Assembly (NCBI GenBank): GCA_963768055.1 | Contig: CAVYGN010000002.1 | Coordinates: 320,001 to 384,000 of the forward strand | Direction of reading: 5' to 3' | Source: an uncultured Spirochaetota bacterium | GTDB taxonomy: Bacteria > Spirochaetota > Brevinematia > Brevinematales > JAOACQ01 | Length of the DNA: 64,000 nucleotides | Shown: piece after piece, positions 9,798 through 58,807 of the stretch | How positions within the stretch are numbered: the stretch's first letter is position 1 | How the letters are laid out: each line of letters begins with the position of its first letter | Translations under genes and position numbers: made by a program | Notes under the pieces: generated by a model | The model's database searches: none | What the model was told of the DNA's origin: nothing | What the model saw: the letters and a program-made list of their open reading frames with translations, nothing else

Positions 9798-9850
9798 GAT
9801 TTTTTCGACTGTGATGCTGAAAATATGGATGACGTGAAGGAATACATTAT

Positions 9851-10237
9851 TTGCTTGAACCAGTGCCTATAAGTGTGCGATTATACTCTCCTTCAAGTAT
9901 TTTCAGCGGAAAAATGCATGCTGTCCTTTTCAGAGGCTGGAAGAACAGGGTGAAGGGCAGGGACTGGTACGATATGGTATTTCTTATAGGGCAGGGTATT
10001 GCTGTCAGTCTTTCGCATCTAAAAGAAAGGCTTGTTCAAACAGTGCACTGGAAACCTGGTGATAATTTCAGTAAAAATGATCTGCTGCAAATGCTAGAAA
10101 AAAGAATTGAGCAGACGGATTTTGACTCTGCAAAAAACGACGTGCTCCCATTCATCAAAGATCCTGATTCTGTGAGAGTCTGGTCGAAAGAGTTTTTTAG
10201 AGGGCTTTTATTGAAACTCAAAACAGTAGATTTATAG
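9851..10237 (+). pseudogene. AbiEii/AbiGii nucleotidyltransferase toxin, C-terminal fragment
   Basis: FSGKMHAVLFRGWKNRVKGRDWYD motif; N-terminal NTase half absent (in-frame TGA at 9830-9832). Confidence 0.8.
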
Positions 10238-10315
10238 TCCCCTTATATTCTTCCCATAGATTCTTTAAATTAACCCCTGGCCTGGTTAATTCCTTTAATA
10301 TGGTTCTATTTTAAC

Positions 10316-10368
10316 AAAAGCGGAAAACCAGATCGGTGAAAAGCGGAAAATTTAAACCGGTGTTAACA
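10316..10368. mobile_element. orphan IS21-like terminus
   Basis: Tandem AAAAGCGGAAAA...CGGTG subterminal repeats ending in ...GTTAACA (CA end). Confidence 0.4.
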
Positions 10369-10540
10369 TCAAGGATTACAATGAAAACAGGCCACATAGC
10401 AGGAAATATTGTTATGGGAAAACTCCAATGCAGACTTTTATCGATTCGATCCCTCTGGCCAAGGAAAAAATGATCGGATATGAGAATGTCGTTGGGGGGT
10501 AGAAATGGGTTGTTTGTCAGATGAAGTTCTGGCTAGTACA
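10369..10540 (+). pseudogene. IS481-family transposase 3' remnant with right end
   Basis: Translates ...DYNENRPHSRKYCYGKTPMQTFIDSIPLAKEKMIG...*; ends TGTCAGATGAAGTTCTGGCTAGTACA. Confidence 0.7.
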
Positions 10541-10633
10541 AATAACATTACTGATCACACTGAAATCTTATATTTATATTTCCTTTAATCCCCTTATTAT
10601 ATAGTATATTCTTGTAACTATTTTGAAGCTTCA

Positions 10634-11310
10634 TCATTCAAAATATTTGAACTCATTAACCAATAAATTATATATTTCTTCTTTAACTATTTTCATTTGT
10701 TCAGATATCTCTTTAAACATTGAAATTAAATCATGGCAGCCATTGATTTCTGCATACTTTTTTATTTGAATTAAACCCGAATCTTTAGTTAAAAAATCAG
10801 GATAGTTAAAATATTTAAAGTATGGTTCATTTTGTAGTCCAATGTTACGTAATATATCACCTTTGCAGTAGTTAATATTCCATTCTTTATATAATATTTT
10901 AATAGTATTAACGAGGTTAATAGCTTGAGATGGAGTTTCCACAATAAAATTATCTAATTCTTTCATCCAAAAGGAATCAGGATTATTGGTACTCAGCGGA
11001 TTATTGACAAAGACTTCTGGAGCTCCATCTACAGGATTATCTTTTTCAAATTTAGTTACAACACATCCATTTTCAGCCAAACCAAAGGCAAAGCATAATG
11101 AATAAAAATATGCTTCTAAATGTTGAAAAATTTCTGGTTGCCAGATATCAAATTGATTTGCCCAAATGGGATATTTCCCATTCAAGGCTTTTGTTATTGC
11201 AAACCAAGAAAATATTTTCTTTGCGGAAATAAAATTATATGCCGAATATCCTTTTTGATCGGGAGTTAAATTAGTACATCTTGATTTATTCATATCAAGA
11301 AAAGCTGTAT
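10634..11310 (-). pseudogene. Type IIG-like R-M gene, 3' segment (putative target-recognition region)
   Basis: Rejoins the middle segment in frame (...VWFRI|DTAFLDMNKSRC...) when the IS3 and one CTAT are removed. Confidence 0.8.
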
Positions 11311-11346
11311 CTATCGGTTTTTGTCAAGGGAGTTGTCGCTTTTATT

Positions 11347-12375
11347 TTACGCCGCAACCAACGATTCCTTGTTAGTCTTACTCGGGTTTAAAAATACCGA
11401 TTCTATCCGTTCCCATTTTTTAGATTCTCCTGACCATCTTTCAGGATGTCTGCTTTTTGCAGCCGCATAAGTTTCCGCTCTCTTCAGGAGTATCGCCTTA
11501 TCTTTACCTTCATGTCTCTGTGCTGGTGTGACATATCCGATCCCTGAATGAAGATGTTTATTATTATACCAGTCTACAAAATTTTGCATCCATATTTCTA
11601 CCGATTCCATTGTCTCGAAATTGCCTGGGTATTTCACATTATATTTCAATGTTTTAAACAATGATTCTGAGTAAGGGTTATCGTTACTTACACTCGGCCT
11701 TGAAAACGACGGCATAACCTGTAACCTCTGCAAGGTCGCTAACATCGTAGCCCCTTTCATAGGAGAACCATTATCAGAATGTAAATACAAGCCTTTCAAA
11801 TCAATGGTTTCTCCGATCTCTGCCACCATTCTTGCGGCATGATCAGAGCTTTCCTCCTCGTGCATTTTCCAGCCGACTATCTTACGGCTCCAGACATCTT
11901 CGATCATATAGAGGTAGAAATACTTACCTTTTATATGACTGGATATATATGTAATATCCCAACTCCATACCTGATTAGGACCCGTCGCTTCCAGTTCTCT
12001 TGGCGTTTTCCTTGCCGTTTTCGGCTTCGTTTCGTATCTATGGTGCAGCAAATCATTGTCCTTTAAAACGCGGTAAAAAGATGATTCTGATGCTATATAC
12101 CGACCTTCCTCTGCCAGCATGGGCACTATTTCATTCGGCGTCATATCTCTAAATCTCTCGCTGCAACAGCAGGAGATGATCTCCTCCCTTTCTTCGGCCG
12201 ACAGGGCATTTGAAGGCATTACATTTCTCAATTTTCTTCTGTCTCCCTCAAGATTTTTATTCCAGCGCTGTATGGTCCTTATATCATAGCCAGATTCTTC
12301 ACAAGCCTTATCCCTGCTGGCCCCTGTCGTAACAGCCTCATTAATCAAGGCACAGATATCTATGCGTATATCCAA
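11347..12375 (-). CDS. IS3-family transposase OrfB (DDE integrase core)
   Basis: WSWDITY, HSDNGS, DNPYSESLFKTLK motifs. Confidence 0.95.
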   Translation of the reverse strand: MDIRIDICALINEAVTTGASRDKACEESGYDIRTIQRWNKNLEGDRRKLRNVMPSNALSAEEREEIISCCCSERFRDMTPNEIVPMLAEEGRYIASESSFYRVLKDNDLLHHRYETKPKTARKTPRELEATGPNQVWSWDITYISSHIKGKYFYLYMIEDVWSRKIVGWKMHEEESSDHAARMVAEIGETIDLKGLYLHSDNGSPMKGATMLATLQRLQVMPSFSRPSVSNDNPYSESLFKTLKYNVKYPGNFETMESVEIWMQNFVDWYNNKHLHSGIGYVTPAQRHEGKDKAILLKRAETYAAAKSRHPERWSGESKKWERIESVFLNPSKTNKESLVAA

Positions 12376-12380
12376 TGGAG

Positions 12381-12863
12381 TTAATCTTCCTCGATCCCGA
12401 ACAGCTTGTTCAGTTTTTTTTTAAGCACCAGCAGAGAAGTAACCTCGGCTATAGTTTTATCCTTACGGTTAATTTCTTTTTCTAACTCTATGATTTTTGC
12501 TTTCAAACCCTTGTTTTCTTCTCTGTATGAGTTATTAGATATCACTGATAAACACTCCTGTTTCCAGAGTTCGATATGAGTCGACTGGAGACCATTTTTT
12601 CTCAACCACTGTCCTAACTCTTCTCCCGATTGGCTTGCTGCGTCTACTACCGCCTGATATTTATCAGATAATTTCCAGCCTCTCGGGCTTCTATCCTGGA
12701 ATCCTCTGGATACATTATTCTGGATCATTTTCCTCCAGTTGTAAAGGGTTTGTTCACATACTCCTATTTCCTGGCTCAGTTCAGATACTGTTTTTCCTCC
12801 TGGCATACACATCTTTTGAACGATAGATTTCCTGAATTCCTCTGAACGAATTTGACTATTCAT
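12381..12863 (-). CDS. IS3-family transposase OrfA (HTH)
   Basis: HTH VSELSQEIGVCEQTLYNW; coiled coil; A9 slippery run near the 3' end. Confidence 0.9.
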   Translation of the reverse strand: MNSQIRSEEFRKSIVQKMCMPGGKTVSELSQEIGVCEQTLYNWRKMIQNNVSRGFQDRSPRGWKLSDKYQAVVDAASQSGEELGQWLRKNGLQSTHIELWKQECLSVISNNSYREENKGLKAKIIELEKEINRKDKTIAEVTSLLVLKKKLNKLFGIEED

Positions 12864-12910
12864 TTTTTGTCTCCTAATATTTTAGGCGACAACTATCCTA
12901 ACACACGGGG

Positions 12911-14117
12911 CTATCCTGAACCAAACAGAATTAATATTATTTATTGAAAATCTTATATTATCTCTTGGATTAATTCTTACAGGTGTACCATCTTCCATTC
13001 CTCCAATAAAATTAGAATTCGTTACCCCATATGTTTTCTTATTATTTCTCCTTTCATCTTTTAACGGTAAACCGCCATAAATCTGTTTGGAATCAATTTC
13101 TTGTTTTGTAGGGTCTCTTTTAAAATCATACATCGCCTGTTTAGACCATATTTTTATAGATGTTCTATTTTGTGAAAAATTAATTATTTTAGATTGTTTT
13201 ATGACTTTTAATATTATTTTGTTAAGTTCTTCGAGTGATAAACCCCAGTTAATTGATAACTCTTTAGCCTCTACATTTGAATAATCATTAATTTTGATGA
13301 TATTACTATTTCCTTTTTCATTAAAATTATAACTCCAAATTGTAAATGAAACCGGGAAATTACCAATATTTTTAAAAAATCCATTGCCATTTACAATAAA
13401 CCCTTTTTCATATTTAAAATGCTTATCAAAAACTTCTCTAAATGCTTTATACGAAGGCCTTGGTATCAACCATGAAGTTGCAGTAAATATTAATAAAATT
13501 GGATTCAAACCCGGATGCTTCTCTAAATATAATTTTGACAGATTTAAAATTTGAGCCAAAAAAGCAGTATATCTTTCATTTCCCGCATCGTTACCTGTAA
13601 GTTCAATTATAGATGGATCTACTTTATAATTTGAATTAGCATTTATTCTTATATTAATATTCTCATCAGTATTTTTATAAGGTGGATTTAACAGGAATGC
13701 CAAAGGCTTATCGAAAGATAAATTTTTTTCTTTCAACTCATTTTCTAAAATTTGAAGATATTCATTTGCGGTTTTATCAATAAAATTCAACCCTTTATTT
13801 TCTGATGTCTTTGGTATTATAGTAAACCCTGCTTGAATATCATCCGGATCATTTTTCATTCTTCTTTCAATCGTTTTTAATAAATCCGGCTGCAATTCAG
13901 AAACTATTTTATGTTTTAAATGTCCTCTCCAGCTTGTTACTAAATTCCCTGATCCGCCTGCAGGATCAAATACTATATATTTGTCTGATAATTTGGTTTC
14001 GTAATAATGATGGACAAACCACAATGCGAATTTGCTTAAATTAATATTTGTAAAAAAAATTCCATTCTGTCTTACGTAATCAGGATTTATTCTATTAATA
14101 ACTTCATCAAATCTACT
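12911..14117 (-). pseudogene. Type IIG-like R-M gene, middle segment (amino-methyltransferase)
   Basis: Motif X GIFFT, motif I VFDPAGGSGNL, motif IV LNPPY (gamma-class order). Confidence 0.85.
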
Positions 14118-14164
14118 AAAATAATGGGAATTACATACTTGACTACCTAATATGAATATTTTGG

Positions 14165-14224
14165 GTTTGTTTGATAATTTTATTAGAGTAAATTAAAAAT
14201 AAGAAAATAAACTCTTTTATATTT
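14165..14224 (+). repeat. block A, 60-bp plus-strand promoter/leader, copy 1
   Basis: Identical to 14630-14689. Confidence 0.9.
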
Positions 14225-14248
14225 ATTAATAAAATAAAGGAATTACTT

Positions 14249-14425
14249 ATGTCTATTAAAAAATTCAAAGAAGGAAAATTAATTAAAGAATATAGCATTC
14301 CTAATAAACGATTAGAATCTATAATTAAAATTTTAGATGAAAATAAAATCAATGTTCTGATGTATAATTGCGATCCTCAAATGAATACGGCAGACCTTAG
14401 AATAGAATTTTTAGAAGAAAATTAA
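14249..14425 (+). CDS. 58-aa hypothetical passenger (pair 1, plus partner; not in ORF track)
   Basis: AAAGGA RBS; MSIKKFKEGKLIKEYSIPNKRLESIIKILDENKINVLMYNCDPQMNTADLRIEFLEEN*; stop overlaps partner stop in TTAA. Confidence 0.6.
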   Translation: MSIKKFKEGKLIKEYSIPNKRLESIIKILDENKINVLMYNCDPQMNTADLRIEFLEEN

Positions 14426-14571
14426 ATCTGTCCTGAACCGCCGCATTTTGGGCATGCTTTTCTTTTGTCGCCACCACAAGAATGACATTCTTTCCCATTA
14501 ATTTTCCCGGTTCCATGACAAACAGGGCAGATAATTGTTTTTGCTCCGTGACAAGTTGGACACATAGCCAT
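14422..14571 (-). CDS. 49-aa DnaJ-type cysteine-rich zinc-finger mini-protein (pair 1, minus partner; not in ORF track)
   Basis: MAMCPTCHGAKTIICPVCHGTGKINGKECHSCGGDKRKACPKCGGSGQI*: four CxxCxG repeats; GGAGG RBS; TTGACA-16-TACACT promoter. Confidence 0.85.
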   Translation of the reverse strand: MAMCPTCHGAKTIICPVCHGTGKINGKECHSCGGDKRKACPKCGGSGQI

Positions 14572-14635
14572 TTTATTCCTCCGCAATAATTAATAGTTAA
14601 GTGTAGTTCGTTTTCGTAAATTGTCAATAGTTTGT
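14564..14635 (-). repeat. block B, 72-bp minus-strand promoter + RBS + start, copy 1
   Basis: Identical to 16814-16885; contains -35 TTGACA (14622-14627), -10 TACACT (14600-14605), GGAGG and ATGGCTAT. Confidence 0.9.
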
Positions 14636-14689
14636 TTGATAATTTTATTAGAGTAAATTAAAAATAAGAAAATAAACTCTTTTATATTT
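14630..14689 (+). repeat. block A, copy 2
   Basis: Identical to 14165-14224; overlaps block B by GTTTGT. Confidence 0.9.
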
Positions 14690-14715
14690 TTAAATAATAT
14701 AAAGGAGTGTATATT

Positions 14716-14889
14716 ATGTTAAACTTTAAAATCGGTGATTCTGTAATGTTAAAATCAGGGGGAGTTACAAGAACAGTCATTAAAATATTGAAAAATGGGT
14801 TTATAAAATGTTCTTATTTAAACCCCAATAAAAGATTCTTTAAAAAAATGATTAATGTTTTTAATCCTTTGGTACTTACTAAAGTTTAA
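14716..14889 (+). CDS. YodC/DUF2158-like small protein (pair 2, plus partner, 57 aa, basic)
   Basis: FKIGDSVMLKSGG...C...F motif; AAGGAG RBS. Confidence 0.8.
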   Translation: MLNFKIGDSVMLKSGGVTRTVIKILKNGFIKCSYLNPNKRFFKKMINVFNPLVLTKV

Positions 14890-14894
14890 TTAAA

Positions 14895-15095
14895 TTAATC
14901 TTTTACCAATTCTATCACATTTGGATTAAAAGTAGCAAATATTGGTTTCTTTGTTGATTCATCTTCTCTTGTACATCTTATATCACCAATATGTACAGCA
15001 AATAGTGGATTATTTTCTGTTACAATGGAATGAACTACCCATTTAGACCCACCACTTTTCATTTTAACAATATCTCCAATATTAAACGTATCCAT
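14895..15095 (-). CDS. YodC/DUF2158-like small protein (pair 2, minus partner, 66 aa)
   Basis: FNIGDIVKMKSGG...C...FNPNVIELV; own TTGACA-18-TACGCT promoter (15147-15152, 15123-15128). Confidence 0.8.
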   Translation of the reverse strand: MDTFNIGDIVKMKSGGSKWVVHSIVTENNPLFAVHIGDIRCTREDESTKKPIFATFNPNVIELVKD

Positions 15096-15293
15096 TTTAT
15101 TCTTCCCAATAGTTATTGGTTAAGCGTACCATTTATTTAATAAAATTGTCAATATTACGAATACACAAATCAAAAAAATTGATTTAAAATTATTCTTATC
15201 TTATTGTAATCAAAGGAGTTCTGCGCCTATACCCCTCATTTTATAAAGTAGTCAAAATATGTTATAATATATGTGCTGAAAGGGAGAAAAGGC

Positions 15294-16215
15294 ATGAAAA
15301 ACACGGCGATCAGCACGTATGAGTTTTTGAAAAGTTTTCCCGATGAAAAGTCTGCGAGGATTTATTTAGAGAAGGAACGCTGGAATGGTAAAATAACTTG
15401 TCCTTTCTGTGGAAATAAAGATCGTATTCAGGTAAGGAAAGAAGAAGGCTATTTTCGTTGTTTGGCTTGCAAAAAGGATTTCACTGTCCGTACAGGGACT
15501 ATTTTTGAAAGGTCTCATGTTCCTCTTGATAAATGGCTTTACGCAATGTACCTTGTCGTAACCGACCGTAAAGGAATTTCATCATTGGAACTATCAAAGG
15601 TTATTGGGATTACTCAAAAGTCAGCCTGGTTTTTATTACAGCGTTTACATGAAGCATGCAAAGGCGAGAACACTATCCTTTCCGGCATAATCGAAGCCGA
15701 TGAAACGTATATCGGCGGCAAAGAGAAAAACAAACATTCTAATAAAAAAGCGAGAGCCGGACGTGGTGCAGTTGGAAAGACGGCAGTATTAGGCATGAAA
15801 GAAAGGAATGGAGACGTAAAAGCAATTGCAATTCCTAATACGGAAGCTTCGACTATTCAAGATATTATCAGAGAAACAGTCGTTCCAGGTTCAATGCTTT
15901 TTACAGATGAACATCGGTCGTATAATGGTATGACGGAATATACACATCTTTCAGTCAATCATAGTGCGAAGGAATTTGTAAACGGCATGGCTCACACAAA
16001 CGGTATTGAAAGCGTATGGGCTGTGTTGAAGCGTGGATATTACGGCACATTCCATCATTTTTCAGTCAAGCATCTTCAAAGATATGTTGACGAGTTTTCA
16101 TTTCAGGTTGAATGAAGGCAAATGTAAGATTAAATCTATAGATCGTATTAATGCTTTATTCACTAAAACTGTCGGTGTTCACATGACGTATAAAGAATTG
16201 AAGGATATACATTAA
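15294..16215 (+). pseudogene. IS1595-family transposase with a +1 frameshift near the 3' end (~16101-16104)
   Basis: Zn ribbon CPFCG...CLAC, HTH, EADETY/FTDE/TNGIES DDE residues; the EFSF|RLNEG...MTYKEL tail continues in another frame to stop 16215. Confidence 0.9.
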
Positions 16216-16219
16216 TTCT

Positions 16220-16252
16220 AACTCCTTTATATTTAGTAATAATAAAGGAGTT
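16220..16252 (+). promoter_or_regulatory. RBS-sequestering hairpin
   Basis: Perfect 11-bp stem AACTCCTTTAT/ATAAAGGAGTT containing the AAGGAG of the 16258 ORF. Confidence 0.7.
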
Positions 16253-16257
16253 TATCT

Positions 16258-16482
16258 ATGCGAAAATGTAGAATTGTAAAAAATTTAGACAATCAGAAAT
16301 TTTATCCAGAAGTGTTTACAGATTATTTTGGTTATGATGACTGGCTAAATTTTGAAGATGAAAAACAAGGTTCAGGGTCAATAGCATCATTTGACACTCT
16401 TAAAGAAGCAGAAGATTTTTGTAATAAATTTATTAAGCATTCTCAAGCAGATAAAATAGAATCTCAAAAAGAATTAAACTAA
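16258..16482 (+). CDS. 74-aa hypothetical passenger (pair 3, plus partner)
   Basis: Strong RBS; SFDTLKEAEDFC motif; 9-nt overlap with convergent partner. Confidence 0.7.
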   Translation: MRKCRIVKNLDNQKFYPEVFTDYFGYDDWLNFEDEKQGSGSIASFDTLKEAEDFCNKFIKHSQADKIESQKELN

Positions 16483-16821
16483 TTTTTTAGGGACATCATA
16501 ATCATTATCAAGTTCTGTCGAGGCTTTTGCAAGATCAAAATAATCACTTAAATGGTTTATTAACATTTCAATAAATCTTCCATGATAAACACCATAAGTT
16601 TCTCTTTCTAATTCCTCATCTTTTCTTTTTAGAATTCCAAAATTTATTTGTTTATCAAGTAAATACGGTTTTAACCATGCTTTATTTTCCCAATTATCAG
16701 CGATATGTGTAAAATCACCAGCCTTGTCTGGTTTCCATGTTCTTATTTTGTTACTTTCAATAAGTTCATTGATTTTTTCTAAAAAACCTCTTGGATTATT
16801 TGTCTGGATATAAATAGCCAT
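16474..16821 (-). CDS. 115-aa hypothetical passenger (pair 3, minus partner)
   Basis: Starts MAIYIQT inside block B; TW...GDFTH...W..KAW and YGVYHGRFIEML segments. Confidence 0.8.
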   Translation of the reverse strand: MAIYIQTNNPRGFLEKINELIESNKIRTWKPDKAGDFTHIADNWENKAWLKPYLLDKQINFGILKRKDEELERETYGVYHGRFIEMLINHLSDYFDLAKASTELDNDYDVPKKLV

Positions 16822-16885
16822 TTTATTCCTCCGCAATAATTAATAGTTAAGTGTAGTTCGTTTTCGTAAATTGTCAATAGTTTGT
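16814..16885 (-). repeat. block B, copy 2
   Basis: Identical to 14564-14635. Confidence 0.9.
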
Positions 16886-16937
16886 ATTCTAAAGTTTTTG
16901 TTATATAATATTGGAAATAGGATAATGGAGGCAAAAT

Positions 16938-17432
16938 ATGTTTTGTCCTAAATGTGGAAAAGAAAACGTTGACACGGCGGCTTTCTGTATCGCTTGTGGA
17001 AACAAAATTAGCCAAGACAATTCTACTGTTCAAGAGAAGGTTGAAGTCCAGGAGAAACCTACTAAGGTAAAATTACCAGGATTAATTCTCGCATTTGTTT
17101 TGGGACTAATCGCATTTTTAACACAAATAATAAGTATAATATTCCTTGTAATTATGGAAAATTGGAAAGTAATTTCATTTACTAATACAATTAAAGAGGC
17201 AGTGAATAATAGTTTATTGATATTTGGGGTTATATTGGTAATATTAGCCATTATAGTAATTGTTTTTAGTATCATTGGTCTGGTTTTGGGTAGTAAAGCA
17301 TTAAAAACTTTTAAATTGAATCCAACACAATATCAAGGTAAGGGTTATGCAACGGCGGGAAAAGTTTTTTGTATTCTTAGTCTTGCAATATATATTATTC
17401 CAATAATTATTCTTATTTGGTTATTATTTTAA
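16938..17432 (+). CDS. zinc-ribbon membrane protein (DUF4190-like C-terminus)
   Basis: CPKCG...CIACG; three hydrophobic helices; LGSKALK...GKGYATAG motif. Confidence 0.75.
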   Translation: MFCPKCGKENVDTAAFCIACGNKISQDNSTVQEKVEVQEKPTKVKLPGLILAFVLGLIAFLTQIISIIFLVIMENWKVISFTNTIKEAVNNSLLIFGVILVILAIIVIVFSIIGLVLGSKALKTFKLNPTQYQGKGYATAGKVFCILSLAIYIIPIIILIWLLF

Positions 17433-17472
17433 TCGGACATATTTACAGACAATAAATAAGAAGGTTAAATAA

Positions 17473-17598
17473 ATGAAGAAACAAATTAAACCAAAAGAAA
17501 GTAAGAATAAAGGCAAGAAATATGAAAAGCCGTTATCACTCTATTCAATAGGAATGAAGAAGGTTTTAAATATAGTGCTAAAGAAGAATAAAGCTTGA
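17473..17598 (+). CDS. 41-aa lysine-rich small ORF (not in ORF track)
   Basis: AAGG RBS; MKKQIKPKESKNKGKKYEKPLSLYSIGMKKVLNIVLKKNKA*. Confidence 0.5.
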   Translation: MKKQIKPKESKNKGKKYEKPLSLYSIGMKKVLNIVLKKNKA

Positions 17599-17637
17599 TT
17601 CCTCTTTATATTTAGGTAAAAACCGGAGGATTCAATT

Positions 17638-18255
17638 ATGAATACTTTTGAAGCATTTCAAATAACATTATTTTTAATTCCAGGATTTCTATCATCAATT
17701 ATATTAAATGCACTTATTGTCCAAAAGGAGAAAAATAAATTTAATCTTATTATTGAAGCTTTGATTTTTTCATTGTTTATATATCTTCCATTAGCTATTT
17801 TAAATCAAAGTAATCCATTAATAATAGATTCCCAATTTAAGATAAGTTATAATGCGGTATCAATGATTTTTCTTGTTATTTTTAGTTTGATTTATCCTAT
17901 GGTTTTATCTTTTCTAATTAATAATGATGAGTTATTAAAATTTGCCAGAAAAATTCATATAACTAAAAGAACTTCAAGAGAATCTGTATGGTATGATGTA
18001 TTTTATGATCATAATAATTTGATTGTCGTAAATTTTTTAGATGGACGAAGGCTTTGTGGATATCCATTACATTATTCTGATAATCCAGAACATCCCTATT
18101 TATATCTAAAAAAACCTGCTTGGATTACTACAAATGAAAATAAAGAACTAAAATATTTAGGAATCGATCAAGATGATGGTATATTGATAACTCCAGAACA
18201 AAAAATAACCTATATTGAATTTTTAAATATACCAAAAGAAAAACTGATAGGGTAA
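17638..18255 (+). CDS. DUF6338-like membrane protein (pair 4, plus partner)
   Basis: LIPGF N-terminal TM motif, three TMs, then SVWYDVF...DGRRLCG...YL Sm-like soluble region. Confidence 0.7.
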   Translation: MNTFEAFQITLFLIPGFLSSIILNALIVQKEKNKFNLIIEALIFSLFIYLPLAILNQSNPLIIDSQFKISYNAVSMIFLVIFSLIYPMVLSFLINNDELLKFARKIHITKRTSRESVWYDVFYDHNNLIVVNFLDGRRLCGYPLHYSDNPEHPYLYLKKPAWITTNENKELKYLGIDQDDGILITPEQKITYIEFLNIPKEKLIG

Positions 18256-18256
18256 A

Positions 18257-18490
18257 TTAATTATCTTTTTTAGTTGTTTCAGTTGATGTTGTTGTAACGA
18301 TAGGAGCCGCAATTGGTGGAGTTAAATTATTATAAAATTCCGTTGCATTTAATTTATTAAATAATGCTTCAGGATTTTTTGATAAATTATTATCTATTGA
18401 AGCAGTCTTTGATTTTTTGGCGATATTCTCTAAATCGTTTTTAGATTCTTTGAGATATTTTATTAAATCTTCTGGTTTATTATCAGGCAT
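18257..18490 (-). CDS. 77-aa hypothetical passenger with Thr-rich tail (pair 4, minus partner)
   Basis: GGGAG RBS; own TTGACA-18-TACACT promoter (18531-18536, 18507-18512). Confidence 0.7.
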   Translation of the reverse strand: MPDNKPEDLIKYLKESKNDLENIAKKSKTASIDNNLSKNPEALFNKLNATEFYNNLTPPIAAPIVTTTSTETTKKDN

Positions 18491-18536
18491 ATTAAACTCC
18501 CGAAATAGTGTATCATATTTATATTTGTGATGTCAA

Positions 18537-18586
18537 ATGAAATTAAAAGGCAAAGATGATGTTAGGTAGTTAAGTATGTAATTCCC
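18537..18586. repeat. internal copy of the transposon right end
   Basis: 48/50 identical to 19111-19160, includes a TIR with one mismatch (18562-18586). Confidence 0.9.
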
Positions 18587-18677
18587 ATTTGTAAATAATA
18601 TAAAGGAGTATGTATTATGAAAAATTCTATGGTTTCAGTCATAACGACTGATCATGATTTTTTAATGGAGGAATATC

Positions 18678-18848
18678 ATGGCAACAACTTTTAAAAAGGG
18701 TGATAAAGCTAAACTTAATTCTGGAAGTCCTGTTTATACTATAACACGAATTAGAAAAGATGGACTTGTTGATTATTATTGGATTGGTAATGATGGGAAA
18801 AAACAAAAAAGTTTTGCTCCGTCTGCTTGTTTAACTAAGATTGAGTAA
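18678..18848 (+). CDS. YodC/DUF2158-like small protein (pair 5, plus partner, 56 aa, basic; not in ORF track)
   Basis: MATTFKKGDKAKLNSGSPVYTITRIRKDGLVDYYWIGNDGKKQKSFAPSACLTKIE*; GGAGG RBS; preceded by a 25-aa ORF at 18617-18694. Confidence 0.8.
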   Translation: MATTFKKGDKAKLNSGSPVYTITRIRKDGLVDYYWIGNDGKKQKSFAPSACLTKIE

Positions 18849-19065
18849 CAAGCATTACTTCTTCTGGTCCATAAAAATTTAATTCATCTTTATTGGAAGA
18901 AGAATCATACCATTTACAAATTAAATCTCCATGAGAACGGTGTCTTAATAAAGCTTGCATGTTATAAGGTCCTTCATTGGTTCCATCATAGATACAGACA
19001 ATAACCATGTCAGGACCACCACTTTTTAATCTAACAACATCACCGACTTTAAATTTTTCAGCCAT
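18835..19065 (-). CDS. YodC/DUF2158 family protein (pair 5, minus partner, 76 aa)
   Basis: FKVGDVVRLKSGGPDMVI...CKWYD canonical signature; AGGAGG RBS; extended -10 TGcTACAAT. Confidence 0.9.
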   Translation of the reverse strand: MAEKFKVGDVVRLKSGGPDMVIVCIYDGTNEGPYNMQALLRHRSHGDLICKWYDSSSNKDELNFYGPEEVMLVTQS

Positions 19066-19160
19066 TTTAATCTTTTCCTCCTTTTTATATTTCATTGTAG
19101 CATAATTTGGATGAAATTAAAAAGCAAAGATGATGTTAGGTAGTCAAGTATGTAATTCCC

Positions 19161-19979
19161 AAAATAATCATCAATAGTTAATCCTGCATTTGGATTAGTA
19201 TAAATATAATGTTGTTCAACAAATTTTCTAAACTCATATTGATTTTTTGAAGCTAATAAAAATCTTTCACTATTTTTTCTTCCACCTTGGCAACTTACCC
19301 ATACTTCATCAGGTTTATTCTCTGCTGGTTCGGCTACAACACTAGTAATATCCCAATAAGAAACAATAGCATAGAAGCAATGAATTGCTGCCATAGGCTC
19401 TTCAAAATACTCTTTAAGCATTTCAATTTTATTTATAAAATTTTGAGGATCGATTTGTAGTCTAGTTGAATCTAAGTTCTTCAAATGTTCAACAAATTCT
19501 TCTAATTTACGGTCAATAAATAGTGAATGAATTTCATCTTTGTTAATAACTAATATTGCATAATCAAGCAATTCTTTCTTTTCAGTACTTTTTAATTTAT
19601 TTGAATTAATATGGCCGATTTCACTTGGTGATTTATTCGGATCAGAATTTGTTACAATTTCAAAAATATAATTAGGTAAATTAGATATTTTCCATAAACC
19701 AATAAAATTATGAGAAATTATACAAATACTGGAAAATGTTAGTCCTTTTTTATTGTAATGATATGCTTGAAAAAATCCTGATAGCCAATCATCTTCTTTA
19801 GTTTTTAATTCAACAATTAAACGTCCTTTTATATAAATATCGGCACCATGTGCTTCTGATTCTTTTAGAAAATCTTTTGAACTGAATATATTTTTAAACA
19901 AAGGAAATATAAGATAATCATCAGCTTTTTCAGAATGAGAACTTGTTAAATATTTGTATAATTGTTTAAGCTCTTTCAT
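19161..19979 (-). pseudogene. Type IIG-like R-M gene, 5' segment (PD-(D/E)xK-like nuclease)
   Basis: ADIYIKGRLIVELKT...QAYHY nuclease-like motif; rejoins in frame (...TIDDYF|SRFDEVI...). Confidence 0.8.
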
Positions 19980-20081
19980 ACAAATGCCACCTGAATATCC
20001 TGCCAAGATAGTAAATTATCTAATCCCATCAATAATTATAACAGATTTATTTGTTTTATAAAAGAGTCATTTTGAAGCTCT

Positions 20082-20821
20082 TTATAAAATTGGTATCAAT
20101 CTTAGCTTTTTTGATCCAAAAAGTTTCACCCGGAATACCCTGCAGGTTTCCGCCGGATTGGGCGACAGTTTTGAACCAGAAACCAGGCAGGTTAAAGCAT
20201 AAACGAATAACAGATAAGAGATGTTTTTGGTGGCTAAAAAAACAATAATATTAATAAATAACCCCCATATTATCCCTGAAGAAAATCGTACTATTCCTTC
20301 ACAAAAAATAATCTCTTCATGAAGCCATTCGGATTTTTCACATACATGCGTTTTACATATATTAATAAATTCATTGTGTTCCATCCTCTCTGGATTTCCG
20401 CTAAATTGTTTATTCATAATTTTGTTATAAAATTCTGTAAATAATTTTGGATGAATTGAATTTTCTTTAAGAAACCATTTAACGTATGGAAACTTCTCTA
20501 TATGTAATTTTATACTATCATTTTTACCAAAACCAAATATTTTTTTAAATTTATTAATAAGACAATATGAATAGCCTGAAAATTTATCAATGATATTTGG
20601 GTTTATTGACCGTAATGAAAATCCAATAATATATGAAAGAATAATAAAAAGAAAATAATAGGAAATATTATAATTTGATTTATCAATAAAACTACCTAAA
20701 CCAAAAATATCAAAAATTTTGTTCCAATAAGATAAAAATTAAATAATAAAAATGCTCCAGGTATTAAAATTCCAAAAAAATCACCTCTTCCAAACTTAAA
20801 AACTTCAGCATATCTACTTAT
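20082..20821 (-). pseudogene. frameshifted multi-TM membrane protein
   Basis: RGDFFGILIPGAFLL segment, frameshift near 20715, further TM segments continuing into the 20082-20417 ORF; no clean ATG. Confidence 0.45.
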
Positions 20822-20845
20822 ACCCCTTTCTACTTCTTTTAAATA

Positions 20846-20967
20846 TCATAATTTCAATTCCTCTATTTTATATATTTTATCAAAAAATTCTTTTCTAATT
20901 TCGCCACTATTTAAATCATTTTTTATTCGTTTAATATAATCATTAAAATTAGGATTAATCTTTGCCA
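20846..20967 (-). pseudogene. 3' tail of the HTH/COG2958-like gene split by IS3 copy 2
   Basis: Joins in frame: ...LETINK|MAKINPNFNDYIKRIKNDLNSGEIRKEFFDKIYKIEELKL*. Confidence 0.8.
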
Positions 20968-21018
20968 TCTTCCCCGTGTGTTAGGATAGTTGTCGCCTAA
21001 AATATTAGGAGACAAAAA

Positions 21019-21501
21019 ATGAATAGTCAAATTCGTTCAGAGGAATTCAGGAAATCTATCGTTCAAAAGATGTGTATGCCAGGAGGAAAAACAGTATCTG
21101 AACTGAGCCAGGAAATAGGAGTATGTGAACAAACCCTTTACAACTGGAGGAAAATGATCCAGAATAATGTATCCAGAGGATTCCAGGATAGAAGCCCGAG
21201 AGGCTGGAAATTATCTGATAAATATCAGGCGGTAGTAGACGCAGCAAGCCAATCGGGAGAAGAGTTAGGACAGTGGTTGAGAAAAAATGGTCTCCAGTCG
21301 ACTCATATCGAACTCTGGAAACAGGAGTGTTTATCAGTGATATCTAATAACTCATACAGAGAAGAAAACAAGGGTTTGAAAGCAAAAATCATAGAGTTAG
21401 AAAAAGAAATTAACCGTAAGGATAAAACTATAGCCGAGGTTACTTCTCTGCTGGTGCTTAAAAAAAAACTGAACAAGCTGTTCGGGATCGAGGAAGATTA
21501 A
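21019..21501 (+). CDS. IS3-family transposase OrfA
   Basis: Same translation as 12381-12863; A9 at 21460-21468 opens the -1 frame into OrfB. Confidence 0.9.
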   Translation: MNSQIRSEEFRKSIVQKMCMPGGKTVSELSQEIGVCEQTLYNWRKMIQNNVSRGFQDRSPRGWKLSDKYQAVVDAASQSGEELGQWLRKNGLQSTHIELWKQECLSVISNNSYREENKGLKAKIIELEKEINRKDKTIAEVTSLLVLKKKLNKLFGIEED

Positions 21502-21506
21502 CTCCA

Positions 21507-22535
21507 TTGGATATACGCATAGATATCTGTGCCTTGATTAATGAGGCTGTTACGACAGGGGCCAGCAGGGATAAGGCTTGTGAAGAATCTGGCTATGATA
21601 TAAGGACCATACAGCGCTGGAATAAAAATCTTGAGGGAGACAGAAGAAAATTGAGAAATGTAATGCCTTCAAATGCCCTGTCGGCCGAAGAAAGGGAGGA
21701 GATCATCTCCTGCTGTTGCAGCGAGAGATTTAGAGATATGACGCCGAATGAAATAGTGCCCATGCTGGCAGAGGAAGGTCGGTATATAGCATCAGAATCA
21801 TCTTTTTACCGCGTTTTAAAGGACAATGATTTGCTGCACCATAGATACGAAACGAAGCCGAAAACGGCAAGGAAAACGCCAAGAGAACTGGAAGCGACGG
21901 GTCCTAATCAGGTATGGAGTTGGGATATTACATATATATCCAGTCATATAAAAGGTAAGTATTTCTACCTCTATATGATCGAAGATGTCTGGAGCCGTAA
22001 GATAGTCGGCTGGAAAATGCACGAGGAGGAAAGCTCTGATCATGCCGCAAGAATGGTGGCAGAGATCGGAGAAACCATTGATTTGAAAGGCTTGTATTTA
22101 CATTCTGATAATGGTTCTCCTATGAAAGGGGCTACGATGTTAGCGACCTTGCAGAGGTTACAGGTTATGCCGTCGTTTTCAAGGCCGAGTGTAAGTAACG
22201 ATAACCCTTACTCAGAATCATTGTTTAAAACATTGAAATATAATGTGAAATACCCAGGCAATTTCGAGACAATGGAATCGGTAGAAATATGGATGCAAAA
22301 TTTTGTAGACTGGTATAATAATAAACATCTTCATTCAGGGATCGGATATGTCACACCAGCACAGAGACATGAAGGTAAAGATAAGGCGATACTCCTGAAG
22401 AGAGCGGAAACTTATGCGGCTGCAAAAAGCAGACATCCTGAAAGATGGTCAGGAGAATCTAAAAAATGGGAACGGATAGAATCGGTATTTTTAAACCCGA
22501 GTAAGACTAACAAGGAATCGTTGGTTGCGGCGTAA
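21507..22535 (+). CDS. IS3-family transposase OrfB
   Basis: Same translation as 11347-12375; DDE motifs. Confidence 0.95.
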   Translation: MDIRIDICALINEAVTTGASRDKACEESGYDIRTIQRWNKNLEGDRRKLRNVMPSNALSAEEREEIISCCCSERFRDMTPNEIVPMLAEEGRYIASESSFYRVLKDNDLLHHRYETKPKTARKTPRELEATGPNQVWSWDITYISSHIKGKYFYLYMIEDVWSRKIVGWKMHEEESSDHAARMVAEIGETIDLKGLYLHSDNGSPMKGATMLATLQRLQVMPSFSRPSVSNDNPYSESLFKTLKYNVKYPGNFETMESVEIWMQNFVDWYNNKHLHSGIGYVTPAQRHEGKDKAILLKRAETYAAAKSRHPERWSGESKKWERIESVFLNPSKTNKESLVAA

Positions 22536-22567
22536 AATAAAAGCGACAACTCCCTTGACAAAAACCG

Positions 22568-23333
22568 TCTTGTTAATAGTTTCAAGGTCAATAACTTCTT
22601 TGAATTTCGCTTGAAATATTGTTTTAGTAGAATTTGGATCTTCCAAATCAAGTTTTATTATACCTATTCCAAATGATGATGAGAGTCTTTCAAGTTCATT
22701 TGTAAAATTTTCATCATCAAGTATATCAGCAGCAACCAGATAACCTTCATTTGCCCATGAAGAATTAGATACTGCTTGAAAAAATGATTCCCTAAGATTA
22801 TTAAAATTCAAAGATATTTTTAATTCATACGAATATAACTTTATGGGCGAAATATTTAATTCTTTAGTTAAATTTATTACTTCTGGTAACCAATTGGGGT
22901 AATAAACGCCAACAATATCAGGATGTGCCCATTGACCAAATGTTTTTTTAGTTGATTCTTCGTGATAAATTGTTTTTGTATAAATATCTTGAAAGGCATA
23001 AACATAATAAGAGAGAAATTTATGTAAATCTTTTTCTTTAAGTTTTTTAATTTCATCTGATTCTTCTATTTTTATTTCTTTTGATTTTATTTGGTTAGAT
23101 AAAGATTTTAGATAAAATTTTGTTGGCCGTTCTTCTGCCTTGTAAAATTTAGAATTCTTATTATCTTTCAGGTCTAAATATAACAAAGCTGCCATTGTCT
23201 GCCATGGAGTTTTTCCTGATGAATTTAATTGTTTATCATAATTCATTTCTTTACCAATTTTCCAAATTTCCATTTTTGTTAATGGCCTTTTTGTGTCATT
23301 AAGAACTTTCTCGGCAAAATCAAGAAAATTCAT
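22568..23333 (-). pseudogene. HARE-HTH + restriction-endonuclease-like (COG2958/HrgA-like) gene, 5' part
   Basis: GKTPWQTMAALLYLD HARE-HTH motif; HPDIVG...SYELK...FFQAVSNSSWANEGYLVA. Confidence 0.85.
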
Positions 23334-23611
23334 ATTACCTTCTATTTAACATTATTTATCCCAAGTATAGTTAAAATGCCATACATATAAAGAATTTTTG
23401 TCTTATAAAATGTTCTATCTAAAATTAATAATCGTACTTCTTCATTATTGTACAACTCTAATTAATGTAATTATACCCCCGCTTTTAAATTCTCTCAATA
23501 GATTGCCAATAATTCTGTGGAATTGATATGTTTGATAGGAAAAAAATTATATAAATTAATCTACCCCTCGCGCAATCTGTACCCATCTGTGAAATCAGTG
23601 TTTCCGTCCCC

Positions 23612-56930: not shown

Positions 56931-58670
56931 TTATTTTCCAGTAAACTTATCGTAATACACATCAGTAGGTTCAGAGGGAAGAGCAGCGCCGCTTTTCTCG
57001 GCCTCATCCAGCTTTTTAACTTTTGCCGGATCATACCACCAGTAGCATATGATTTCGCTGTCTACATAGAAAACTCCTGCGAAGGTTCCATACTTCGAGA
57101 CATAGGTTTTAGGGTGGCCGAAAACGTTTTTATAGAACACCATGTCAAAGTTCGGCCGCCAGAAAAGTATCCATGGGACGTCGGAGTATATTATCGAATC
57201 TATCCGCCTGATTATTTTTGTTCTTTCACCCGTGTCAAAAATAGACGGAAGGGAGTCTATAAGCGCATCGACCCTGGGATTTTTATATCCGGGATAGTTG
57301 TTCCCGTTGAGTTCATCCGCATGCCGCGAGTGCCACAACTGCTCGGGATCTTCAAAAACCACGCCTGAAAATCCCATCCTGACCGCGTCGAACTTGTATT
57401 CGTCCATCCTTTTTGTCATAGTTGCAACCGATGTAAGGTCGAGATCGACCTTTACTCCCGCCTCTTTGCAGGACTGGGCGTATATCGTAAGATATTTTTC
57501 AATATCCTCGTTTATAACTGAAAGTATAGAAAATTCCAGCCTTTCACCCCGGCTGTTTACAAGATAGCCGTCCTTGTCGAGCTTATTGTACCCTGCTTCC
57601 GCAAGAAGTTTCTTGGCCCCTTCAGGATCGTACAGTACGGCGGGATTTTGGCTTATATCCGGGAAATATGAATTAAGCGGCTCAGCCATGCCGTAAAGCA
57701 GCTTGTCGATAATGGTTTTCCTGTCCAGGAGCATAAAAAGGGCCTTCCGGACCCTGACATCCCTGAAAACAGGTTTTCTTATATTAAGAGCCAGTCCGAC
57801 GAAAATTTTCGGCTTATGGTTGTATATCTTCTGTTTTACTATCCAGTTTTTTACGAATTTATCCGAACCGGTCTCGGTTACCCAGTGTCTCGGGGTCAAC
57901 TGATTATTACCGGAAAAAATGTCGAAATCGCCTTTTTTGAATGCCTCGAAGGCCACATCGTTTTCTCTGATGACTTTAAAGATTATTTTATCGAAATTGA
58001 ACATATGGGCCCTGTTGGGAAGAACATCCGCCCAGTAATCCTTTCTTCGCGTCAGGACATAACCCCTCCCGTCCTTTACATCCGTAAGGGCGTAAGGGCC
58101 GCTTGACCCGGGAAGCTCCATGTTGAAGCTTTTATTAAAATCCTTTCCTTGGTAAAGGTGCCTGGGCAATATATTCATTCCTGCAAGGGTTACGAAATTA
58201 AGGTAATTTACGTTTTTCGACTTAAACCGGATAGTATTTTTACCTGTAATTACCGGTTCGTCAAAGCGTATGAAAAAGAGCCTCTGGACCGATGTAAGGT
58301 TATGGGGATCCATTATAACATCATAGGTAAAACTGACGTCTTCCGCCGTTATGGGCTGTCCGTCGGACCACTTTGCCCTCGGATCGATCGTGAAGGTAAA
58401 GGTCTTTTTATCGGGCGATATATTCCAGGAATCCGCTATCAACGGCTCGAATTCAAGGGTATCGGGATTCAGGTCCAGCAAGGAATCGTAAATAAGCTGC
58501 GTCACCTGGTCGACATCGACTTCGTTGTTAATAAAAGAATTGAACGATTCGGGAAACTCCGGCGTATGCAGTGTGAGAACTCCTCCCCTGACCGCAGCCG
58601 GATCGCCCCCTTCGGCCCACAATGAAACCGCCAGGATAAACGGTATTATCGATATTAAAATTTTTTTCAC
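56931..58670 (-). CDS. peptide ABC substrate-binding protein (family 5, YejA-like), copy 2
   Basis: AKWSDGQPITAEDV signature; GTG start at 58670 after GGAGG. Confidence 0.9.
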   Translation of the reverse strand: MKKILISIIPFILAVSLWAEGGDPAAVRGGVLTLHTPEFPESFNSFINNEVDVDQVTQLIYDSLLDLNPDTLEFEPLIADSWNISPDKKTFTFTIDPRAKWSDGQPITAEDVSFTYDVIMDPHNLTSVQRLFFIRFDEPVITGKNTIRFKSKNVNYLNFVTLAGMNILPRHLYQGKDFNKSFNMELPGSSGPYALTDVKDGRGYVLTRRKDYWADVLPNRAHMFNFDKIIFKVIRENDVAFEAFKKGDFDIFSGNNQLTPRHWVTETGSDKFVKNWIVKQKIYNHKPKIFVGLALNIRKPVFRDVRVRKALFMLLDRKTIIDKLLYGMAEPLNSYFPDISQNPAVLYDPEGAKKLLAEAGYNKLDKDGYLVNSRGERLEFSILSVINEDIEKYLTIYAQSCKEAGVKVDLDLTSVATMTKRMDEYKFDAVRMGFSGVVFEDPEQLWHSRHADELNGNNYPGYKNPRVDALIDSLPSIFDTGERTKIIRRIDSIIYSDVPWILFWRPNFDMVFYKNVFGHPKTYVSKYGTFAGVFYVDSEIICYWWYDPAKVKKLDEAEKSGAALPSEPTDVYYDKFTGK

Positions 58671-58712
58671 GGCCAAATTTCCTCCCCGAGATGTTATTAT
58701 ATAATTATACAC

Positions 58713-58807
58713 TGTCATTTCGAGCGTAGCGAGAAATCTTCCTTTCGAGCATAACGTTTATCCTGCCCAGGGGAAGATTTCTCGTCACTACGCTCCTCGA
58801 AATGACA
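58713..58807. repeat. REP-like palindrome between the tandem binding-protein genes
   Basis: TGTCATTTCGAGCGTAGCGAGAAATCTT...AAGATTTCTCGTCACTACGCTCCTCGAAATGACA. Confidence 0.75.

Follow-up and report, generated by a model that had tools for sequence, protein, structure and literature searches.

Do small genes that meet tail to tail on an insertion sequence (IS) form functional two-gene modules, or is such a layout mainly a product of packing? The question is raised by an element at positions 14126-19160 of a 64,000-nucleotide (nt) stretch of DNA from an uncultured Spirochaetota bacterium (assembly GCA_963768055.1, contig CAVYGN010000002.1, positions 320,001 to 384,000; the whole stretch is called the window). 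Next to its transposase, the element carries an array of small open reading frames (ORFs), most of which form convergent pairs. An original prediction had read these pairs as a repeated sense/antisense unit of cargo, and the insertion as one that destroyed a restriction-modification (R-M) gene. We consider it likely that the 5035-bp element is a transporter IS of the IS1595 family that carries about 12 small genes, with a tail-to-tail layout that is mostly packing. It is a further, unusually gene-rich member of a known transposon type, and is real but probably decaying and no longer autonomous.

A gene-rich transporter IS of the IS1595 family

The ends of the element are formed by the 25-mer GGGAATTACATACTTGACTACCTAA, which occurs once on each strand with 0 mismatches (chance expectation 0.00 in 100 shuffles), and the 8-bp target duplication AAAATAAT lies outside both of them (coordinates of these and other features in Table 1). 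The ends span 5035 bp, of which the transposase region accounts for 922 bp. Perfect terminal inverted repeats, duplication, length and a transposase share below 1 kb were thus reproduced as predicted. The transposase contains an ISXO2-like DDE domain (PF12762, E 2.1e-43) and an N-terminal zinc ribbon (PF12760, E 1.1e-10). A genome scan with this transposase yielded 80 related loci (L001-L080, best identity 71%), all outside the window's own genome. In 64/80 loci the transposase lies between two ends with this same core, GGGAATTATATACTTGAC, and 51/80 also have an 8-bp duplication matching at 7-8/8 bases. An 8-bp target duplication is the family value for IS1595. Inside the ends of the window's element, which are inverted repeats over 25/25 bp, lie 12 non-transposase ORFs, eight of them with family or homologue support. 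Transposase domains, ends, duplication and cargo ORFs together uphold the predicted assignment to the IS1595 family with passenger genes. A blastn search with the whole element against plasmid and phage collections gave no match, and an Rfam scan of positions 13500-19700 gave 0 matches.

The transposase frame of this copy is broken. Its 273-aa frame runs to position 16115 and the C-terminus follows in the next frame (16087-16200); sibling transposases consistently align in two frames (6/6), with residues ~5-275 on 15309-16109 and residues ~268-306 on 16087-16200. The frame change lies near 16100, where a sequencing error is possible; barring such an error, this copy would probably need help to move.

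The concept of the transporter IS (tIS) in the IS1595 family, with ISNha5 as an example, is covered in PMC11891212 and PMC7986276, which both cite Siguier, Gagnevin and Chandler (2009). As far as transporter IS are described in the relevant passages of these papers, the element shares with them the ISXO2-like DDE domain, the N-terminal zinc ribbon, short terminal inverted repeats, the 8-bp duplication and passengers inside the ends. What sets it apart from them is a cargo of about 12 small genes that lie both left and right of the transposase, together with a second right end in its interior, promoter modules that occur more than once and a frameshift in the transposase.

Relatives of the transposase and their cargo

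The delimited relatives comprise 49 distinct sequences of 1716-7964 bp, none of which is near the ~1 kb of a simple IS. The left end of L008 equals that of the window's element over all 25 bases. The 49 perfect duplications average 87% A+T, compared with 44% A+T in the 2-kb flanks. Given this strong preference of the clade for AT-rich targets, the element would have landed in a gene of 27% G+C for its base composition and not by aiming at defence genes.

We scanned 147 non-transposase ORFs of at least 60 aa in 46 sibling elements, leaving out L056-L058 as near-copies of L055. DNA methyltransferases were present in 14/46 elements, several of which add a BsuBI/PstI, XamI or MvaI/BcnI endonuclease, a type I specificity subunit, a type III Res subunit or an HNH fusion. 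Other cargo included HNH, P63C, KilA-N and Bro-N proteins and many ORFs without family. Like the window's element, the relatives share the end core and AT-rich 8-bp duplications and have passengers in every delimited element; unlike it, their cargo mostly consists of one to three larger genes, placed on the right-hand side of the transposase. None of these is homologous to the cargo studied here: homologues of the 12 cargo proteins inside delimited siblings numbered 0/12, the single tblastn match falling outside the L036 element. Convergent junctions made up 42/176 (24%) of the sibling junctions, which is close to random, and 20/42 had a gap of at most 5 nt, all by heuristic ORF calls. Passengers are thus the rule in the clade; arrays of convergent pairs are not. 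We did not find regular passenger carriage combined with AT-rich targeting described for this clade in the full-text literature searched, a search that did not extend to the founding IS1595 paper. The methyltransferase cargo and the AT-rich 8-mer targets would together make the clade an R-M vehicle and a frequent disruptor of AT-rich defence islands.

Two sets of siblings show signs of rearrangement. L017, L018 and L019, three copies in genome OZ253489.1, have perfect ends and mismatched flanks; their flanking 8-mers are permuted (the 8-mer left of L017 recurs to the right of L018, and the one left of L018 to the right of L019), which suggests that the copies recombined with each other after insertion. 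The unit L059:9889-17852 measures 7964 bp, has perfect ends flanked by an 8-bp duplication and holds two transposases of IS1595 type as well as an integrase-core gene of IS3 type; it is therefore a nested or fused element.

Cargo genes and their junctions

Judged by family matches, the cargo is a set of about 12 small accessory genes of the phage and plasmid sort, encoding four DUF2158 beta-barrel mini-proteins, a DnaJ-type zinc-finger mini-protein, two membrane proteins, a member of a conserved ~110-aa family whose genes elsewhere lie ahead of TIR or NYN effector genes, and orphans. The convergent partners meet at 14425/14422 (pair 1, 4-nt overlap, TTAA), 14889/14895 (pair 2, 5-nt gap), 16482/16474 (pair 3, 9-nt overlap), 18255/18257 (pair 4, 1-nt gap) and 18848/18835 (pair 5, 14-nt overlap). 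All five spacer-less junctions lie exactly where they had been predicted, with no terminator-like site at any of them. Two cargo genes, 16938-17432 and 17473-17598 (both on the plus strand), have no convergent partner.

The small ORFs appear to be credible genes, because a Shine-Dalgarno core lies 6-12 nt before the ATG at 11/13 starts, out of a total of just 16 strong cores on the two strands of the whole element. Several small partners could nevertheless be chance frames in AT-rich DNA, and some pairs artefacts of ORF calling. The 58-aa, 74-aa and 77-aa partners and the unpaired 41-aa ORF are without family, the last also without a ribosome-binding site, and shadow ORFs of 55-84 aa occur opposite real genes within the element. 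However, the 58-, 74- and 77-aa ORFs each have one of the 16 cores found in these 5 kb 6-7 nt before the ATG, the 77-aa ORF has a 10-of-12 promoter match, and among 1.84 billion representatives a single distant homologue (E 1.4e-6) was found for the 74-aa ORF. We regard an origin of the pairs from chance frames as very unlikely.

Tail-to-tail overlap is not special to the element in this genome. Among housekeeping genes of the window, the overlap is 4 nt between an isochorismatase gene and the gene next to it, and 8 nt between a thioredoxin-domain gene and an ABC ATPase gene; 2/3 of the chromosomal convergent junctions between ORFs of at least 100 aa in the window are overlapping. The layout of the element is best accounted for by genes that alternate in orientation around spacers with promoters and are tightly packed. 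In this scheme, the DDE transposase would act on the 25-bp ends and insert the element into an AT-rich 8-mer, duplicating 8 bp. Sequence matches indicate that nearly every cargo gene would have its own ribosome-binding site and several their own promoter. The genes would be transcribed outwards from spacers of 116-198 bp that bear promoters (the same promoter modules being re-used in two of these spacers), and would meet 3' to 3' without spacer because the element is tightly packed.

Promoter modules, leader hairpins and an extra right end

Four features that had not figured in the original prediction are the frameshift, a third copy of the element end, re-used promoter modules and the two unpaired genes. 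The third end copy (one mismatch) is part of a 51-nt repeat in which 18537-18587 corresponds to 19111-19161 with 96% identity. The target duplication flanks the outer right end, and therefore the 5035-bp unit moved last; given the second, internal right end, this unit looks as if a 574-bp segment had been joined to an older element of 4461 bp (14126-18586). The cargo would accordingly have grown when the 574-bp segment brought in pair 5 and another right end, by end duplication or by fusion of copies. Read in this way, the element shows a simple insertion sequence growing into a multi-gene carrier, with the duplicated right end and the re-used promoter modules as its seams.

Two types of promoter/leader module recur. 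The 77-nt P+ module lies upstream of the plus-strand genes at 14249 and 14716, in copies that are 96% identical. The P- module of ~73 nt (TTGACA-16-TACACT, ribosome-binding site and first codons) precedes the minus-strand genes that end at 14571 and 16821 in identical copies, and the one that ends at 15095 in a diverged copy. By sequence match, TTGACA/TACACT promoter-like sites precede three minus-strand genes. Leader hairpins that pair with the ribosome-binding site were found for 3/5 plus-strand genes (-12.8 kcal/mol, z -4.05; -12.0 kcal/mol, z -3.85; -11.9 kcal/mol, z -1.87). In minus-strand RNA, a U-rich tract comes after the P+ hairpin (-8.0 kcal/mol, z -2.0), and therefore a minus-strand transcript would have to run through the entire plus-strand gene before it could end. 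In a check for plus-strand intrinsic terminators, folds of the P- modules did not surpass those of shuffled sequence. At 18618-18695, a 25-codon upstream ORF begins with an ATG that corresponds by homology to the start codon of the 14716 gene, and it overlaps the real start at 18678; it may be a gene-fusion remnant or a leader peptide. Positions 18635-18651 form a small hairpin with a T-run.

Are the pairs functional modules?

Only pairs 2 and 5 resemble a recurring two-gene unit. They are paralogous as pairs: the plus-strand genes at 14716 and 18678 match each other with E 2e-4 and the minus-strand genes at 14895 and 18835 with E 7e-7. Each of the four proteins is DUF2158/phrog_3261-like, and the two leaders share 84% identity. 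The modelled DUF2158 protein is an SH3-like barrel (mean predicted local distance difference test score, pLDDT, 80) with generic SH3/Tudor/KOW-like fold matches, none at E <=0.001; the 76-aa DUF2158 protein had no tblastn match in plasmids and phages. A complex prediction made for pair 5, the only pair modelled, scored 0.58 against 0.00 for the best of three controls, with a contact agreement between runs of at least 98% and a partner pLDDT of at least 82, which argues weakly for binding. The mark applied to such complexes is reached by 116/157 solved complexes and 2/215 mismatched pairs; at scores of at most 0.60 it is reached by only 18/157 solved complexes and by both passing mismatches. 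The two chains of pair 5 are paralogues, and the score may therefore reflect a family tendency to dimerise. In the packing reading, the products of a DUF2158 pair may form a heterodimer. The literature searched on DUF2158 and DUF6338 mentions them in tables or lists only, with no function found; the tail-to-tail DUF2158 pairs offer a handle on the function of this uncharacterised small-protein family.

For pairs 3 and 4, relatives of one partner occur elsewhere without such a neighbour in the contexts read. The 115-aa protein of pair 3 belongs to a family of ~110 aa with 81 matches (35-53% identity) and 16 invariant residues, for which a PDB sequence search reached a best E of 0.31 and a Foldseek search with the model a best E of 0.09 with a TM-score <0.5. 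In all three contexts read, its relatives have no abutting convergent partner: they lie before a TIR-domain gene or before an NYN-domain gene, both co-directional, or alone near BrnTA in a phage accessory region. The first two contexts come from an Acidithiobacillus plasmid (L081:2833-4215) and a Komagataeibacter plasmid (L083:3001-4115), where the family gene is directly upstream of the TIR-domain and NYN-domain gene, respectively; the gene orders hint at a defence or toxin-like system of two genes in which the small partner is conserved. The 74-aa partner in pair 3 is nearly an orphan, and an Atlas search with the 77-aa partner in pair 4 gave no usable match. On three plasmids, relatives of the DUF6338 protein of pair 4 follow a protease gene, follow an MPN/JAB-domain gene or stand alone, again without an abutting convergent partner (3/3). 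On the Acinetobacter soli plasmid (L086:1-3094), genes for a metallohydrolase, a hypothetical protein and an MPN/JAB-domain protein precede DUF6338 in one direction, and DUF6338 may be a membrane effector of an uncharacterised multi-gene system.

Each tail-to-tail pair might still be a functional module (toxin/antidote, excludon-like switch or anti-defence), coupled by full-length antisense transcription and gained or lost as a unit of cargo. The confirmed convergent geometry, the paralogy of pairs 2 and 5, the slight indication of binding in pair 5, the re-used P+ and P- modules that flank pairs, and the U-rich tract behind the P+ hairpin on the minus strand speak in its favour, as do the junction statistics and the terminator scan given below. 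Against it, PADLOC matched 0/15 proteins and no toxin-antitoxin family was found in Pfam or PHROGs, so that the predicted toxin/antidote or defence character of the modules found no backing in any model. Moreover, the 115-aa family and DUF6338 occur elsewhere with co-directional neighbours and without such partners (6/6 contexts read), siblings show no excess of convergent junctions, unrelated housekeeping genes of the same genome also overlap tail to tail, two cargo genes are unpaired, and the 74-aa partner has hardly any relatives. We consider functional modules of this kind unlikely. The repeated two-gene unit is the DUF2158(+)/DUF2158(-) pair only, present twice as diverged paralogues; the pair as unit of cargo, as in the original prediction, is thus partly supported, by pairs 2 and 5 among other things, and lacks support as a general rule, given the sibling convergence of 24% and the partners that are not kept elsewhere.

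Several observations weigh against a layout that arose mostly by packing. The scan of 5.3 kb for terminators found nothing at the five junctions (2 sites vs 1.7 expected, both elsewhere), and at least five convergent junctions among 13 randomly oriented genes have a marginal P = 0.046, somewhat above random. Pairs 1, 3 and 4 each join an orphan to a family member, an arrangement also seen in fast-evolving partner systems. The leader hairpins hint at regulation beyond what packing explains. Near-identical promoter modules flank pairs although the genes that they drive are unrelated, which would suit the exchange of whole pairs as cassettes. Finally, the relatives compared have transposases at most 71% identical and share no cargo with the element, and their ORF calls are heuristic. 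In the boldest version of these ideas, a convergent pair between P+ and P- modules would be a swappable cassette, exchanged whole by recombination in the modules; partners would be coupled by mutual antisense transcription, DUF2158 pairs also as heterodimers, and the element would be a platform for two-gene switches or addiction/counter-defence modules, spread into AT-rich defence islands. This scenario strikes us as quite improbable, and packing around promoter-bearing spacers remains our preferred reading.

Comparison with other gene arrays

Like integron cassette arrays, the element lines up small accessory genes that are unrelated to each other and have repeats between them. An integron-like array was rejected: no integrase is encoded among the ORFs, there are no attC-like sites, the repeats are promoter/leader modules and orientation alternates. 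Integron cassettes are co-oriented and mostly promoterless, whereas most genes of this element have, by sequence match, their own promoter. Toxin-antitoxin pairs and excludons are likewise two-gene units, and convergent genes without terminator would give overlapping antisense RNA. Excludons are long overlapping antisense transcripts described in Listeria, and type II toxin-antitoxin pairs are normally co-directional operons; here no toxin or antitoxin family was matched, and promoter-like sites that converge, with no terminators at the junctions, were observed. Phage morons and plasmid mini-genes are also small promoter-bearing genes, many of them without an assigned function. DUF2158 has a match in phrog_3261, and P2-like phages of Burkholderia and Ralstonia carry the 115-aa family in their accessory region. 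Unlike morons, the genes of this element ride in an insertion sequence and not in a phage.

The target gene and its low-G+C setting

The IS1595 insertion is precise, because removal of the element and one copy of the duplication restores a 696-aa open frame across the junction, and removal of the left IS3-family copy as well restores a single 912-aa open frame. That a gene was split, as predicted, is thereby supported; its predicted R-M identity is suggested by the motifs DPAGGSGN and NPPY, ~90 residues apart in the translation. The fragments matched no Pfam, NCBIfam, PADLOC or PDB-sequence entry, and the gene may therefore be read only tentatively as an R-M or methyltransferase gene. The two IS3-family copies (1596 bp each, 100% identical, inverted, ORFs of 160 and 342 aa) lie on either side of the element, the left one splitting the same 912-aa gene. 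A composite transposon bounded by them was rejected, since each copy has its own 4-bp repeat (CTAT, TCTT) and is therefore a separate insertion; the outer flanks differ.

The element sits in a stretch of 26-30% G+C within a region of ~45% G+C, and this setting could be an assembly chimera joined via the identical IS3 copies. A perfect 1596-bp inverted repeat flanking 8 kb of such deviating composition would fit a misjoin. However, the separate 4-bp direct repeats of the IS3 copies, the restored 912-aa frame, which runs from inside to outside the repeat, and the low G+C that extends past both copies make a chimera extremely unlikely. The wider island (~9800-23400, 26-37% G+C in a chromosome region of ~45% G+C) looks like a decaying defence island, judged by an AbiEii toxin fragment (9851-10237), the large gene with methyltransferase motifs and an HARE-HTH protein (22491-23333).

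Feature map and a minor observation

Table 1. Features of the element and its surroundings (positions in the window; IRL and IRR, left and right inverted repeat; E values refer to the family named)
Feature	Positions	Strand	Remarks
Target duplication, left copy AAAATAAT	14118-14125		Identical to 19161-19168
IRL, 25 bp	14126-14150	+	0 mismatches; core as in the ends of relatives, GGGAATTATATACTTGAC
P+ promoter/leader module, copy 1, upstream of 14249 gene	14165-14241	+	77 nt, 96% identical to 14630-14706; TTGATA-18-AAAAAT
Pair 1, 58-aa orphan ORF	14249-14425	+	AAGGA 7 nt before ATG; no family above cut-off
Pair 1, 49-aa CxxCxGxG zinc-finger mini-protein	14422-14571	-	PF00684 E 3.2e-5 (below cut-off); phrog_28723 E 3e-5; GGAGG 6 nt before ATG
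P- promoter/leader module, copy 1, before 14571 gene	14564-14636	-	TTGACA-16-TACACT
P+ module, copy 2, upstream of 14716 gene	14630-14706	+	Hairpin pairs with ribosome-binding site; -12.8 kcal/mol, z -4.05
Pair 2, 57-aa DUF2158-like protein	14716-14889	+	phrog_3261 E 5.2e-5; PF09926 E 0.0034; paralogue of 18678 gene
Pair 2, 66-aa DUF2158-like protein	14895-15095	-	PF09926 E 4.7e-4; paralogue of 18835 gene, E 7e-7; diverged P- module upstream
IS1595-family transposase	15294-16215	+	PF12762 E 2e-43, PF12760 E 1e-10; frameshift near 16100
Leader hairpin pairing with ribosome-binding site of 16258 gene	16220-16252	+	-12.0 kcal/mol, z -3.85
Pair 3, 74-aa near-orphan ORF	16258-16482	+	AAGGAG 7 nt before ATG; one distant homologue
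Pair 3, 115-aa member of widespread ~110-aa family	16474-16821	-	81 homologues; model pLDDT 94.3
P- module, copy 2, before 16821 gene	16814-16886	-	Repeat and promoter match
Unpaired 164-aa zinc-ribbon and DUF4190 membrane protein	16938-17432	+	PF13240 E 2.5e-8; PF13828 E 2.3e-7
Unpaired 41-aa lysine-rich ORF, doubtful gene	17473-17598	+	No Shine-Dalgarno core; no family
Pair 4, 205-aa DUF6338 membrane protein	17638-18255	+	PF19865 E 7e-13
Pair 4, 77-aa orphan ORF	18257-18490	-	GGGAG 6 nt before ATG; TTGACA-18-TACACT; no usable Atlas match
Internal second right end (IRR' 18562-18586 and subterminal sequence)	18537-18587	-	51 nt, 96% identical to 19111-19161
Pair 5, 56-aa DUF2158-like protein	18678-18848	+	phrog_3261 E 1e-6; leader 18587-18629 84% identical to 14686-14728
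Pair 5, 76-aa DUF2158 protein	18835-19065	-	PF09926 E 1.8e-10; SH3-like barrel model, pLDDT 80
IRR, 25 bp	19136-19160	-	0 mismatches to IRL
Target duplication, right copy AAAATAAT	19161-19168		Identical to 14118-14125
Target gene in three pieces (19169-20006, 12915-14125, 10634-11314)	10634-20006	-	912-aa frame after removal of both insertions
IS3-family element, left copy	11315-12910	-	Own 4-bp duplication CTAT
IS3-family element, right copy	20972-22567	+	Own 4-bp duplication TCTT

Elsewhere in the window, positions 57917-58212 and 59801-60096 are ~75% identical, lie 1884 bp apart and fall within the minus-strand ORFs 56931-58718 and 58809-60560, which are probably tandem paralogous genes.

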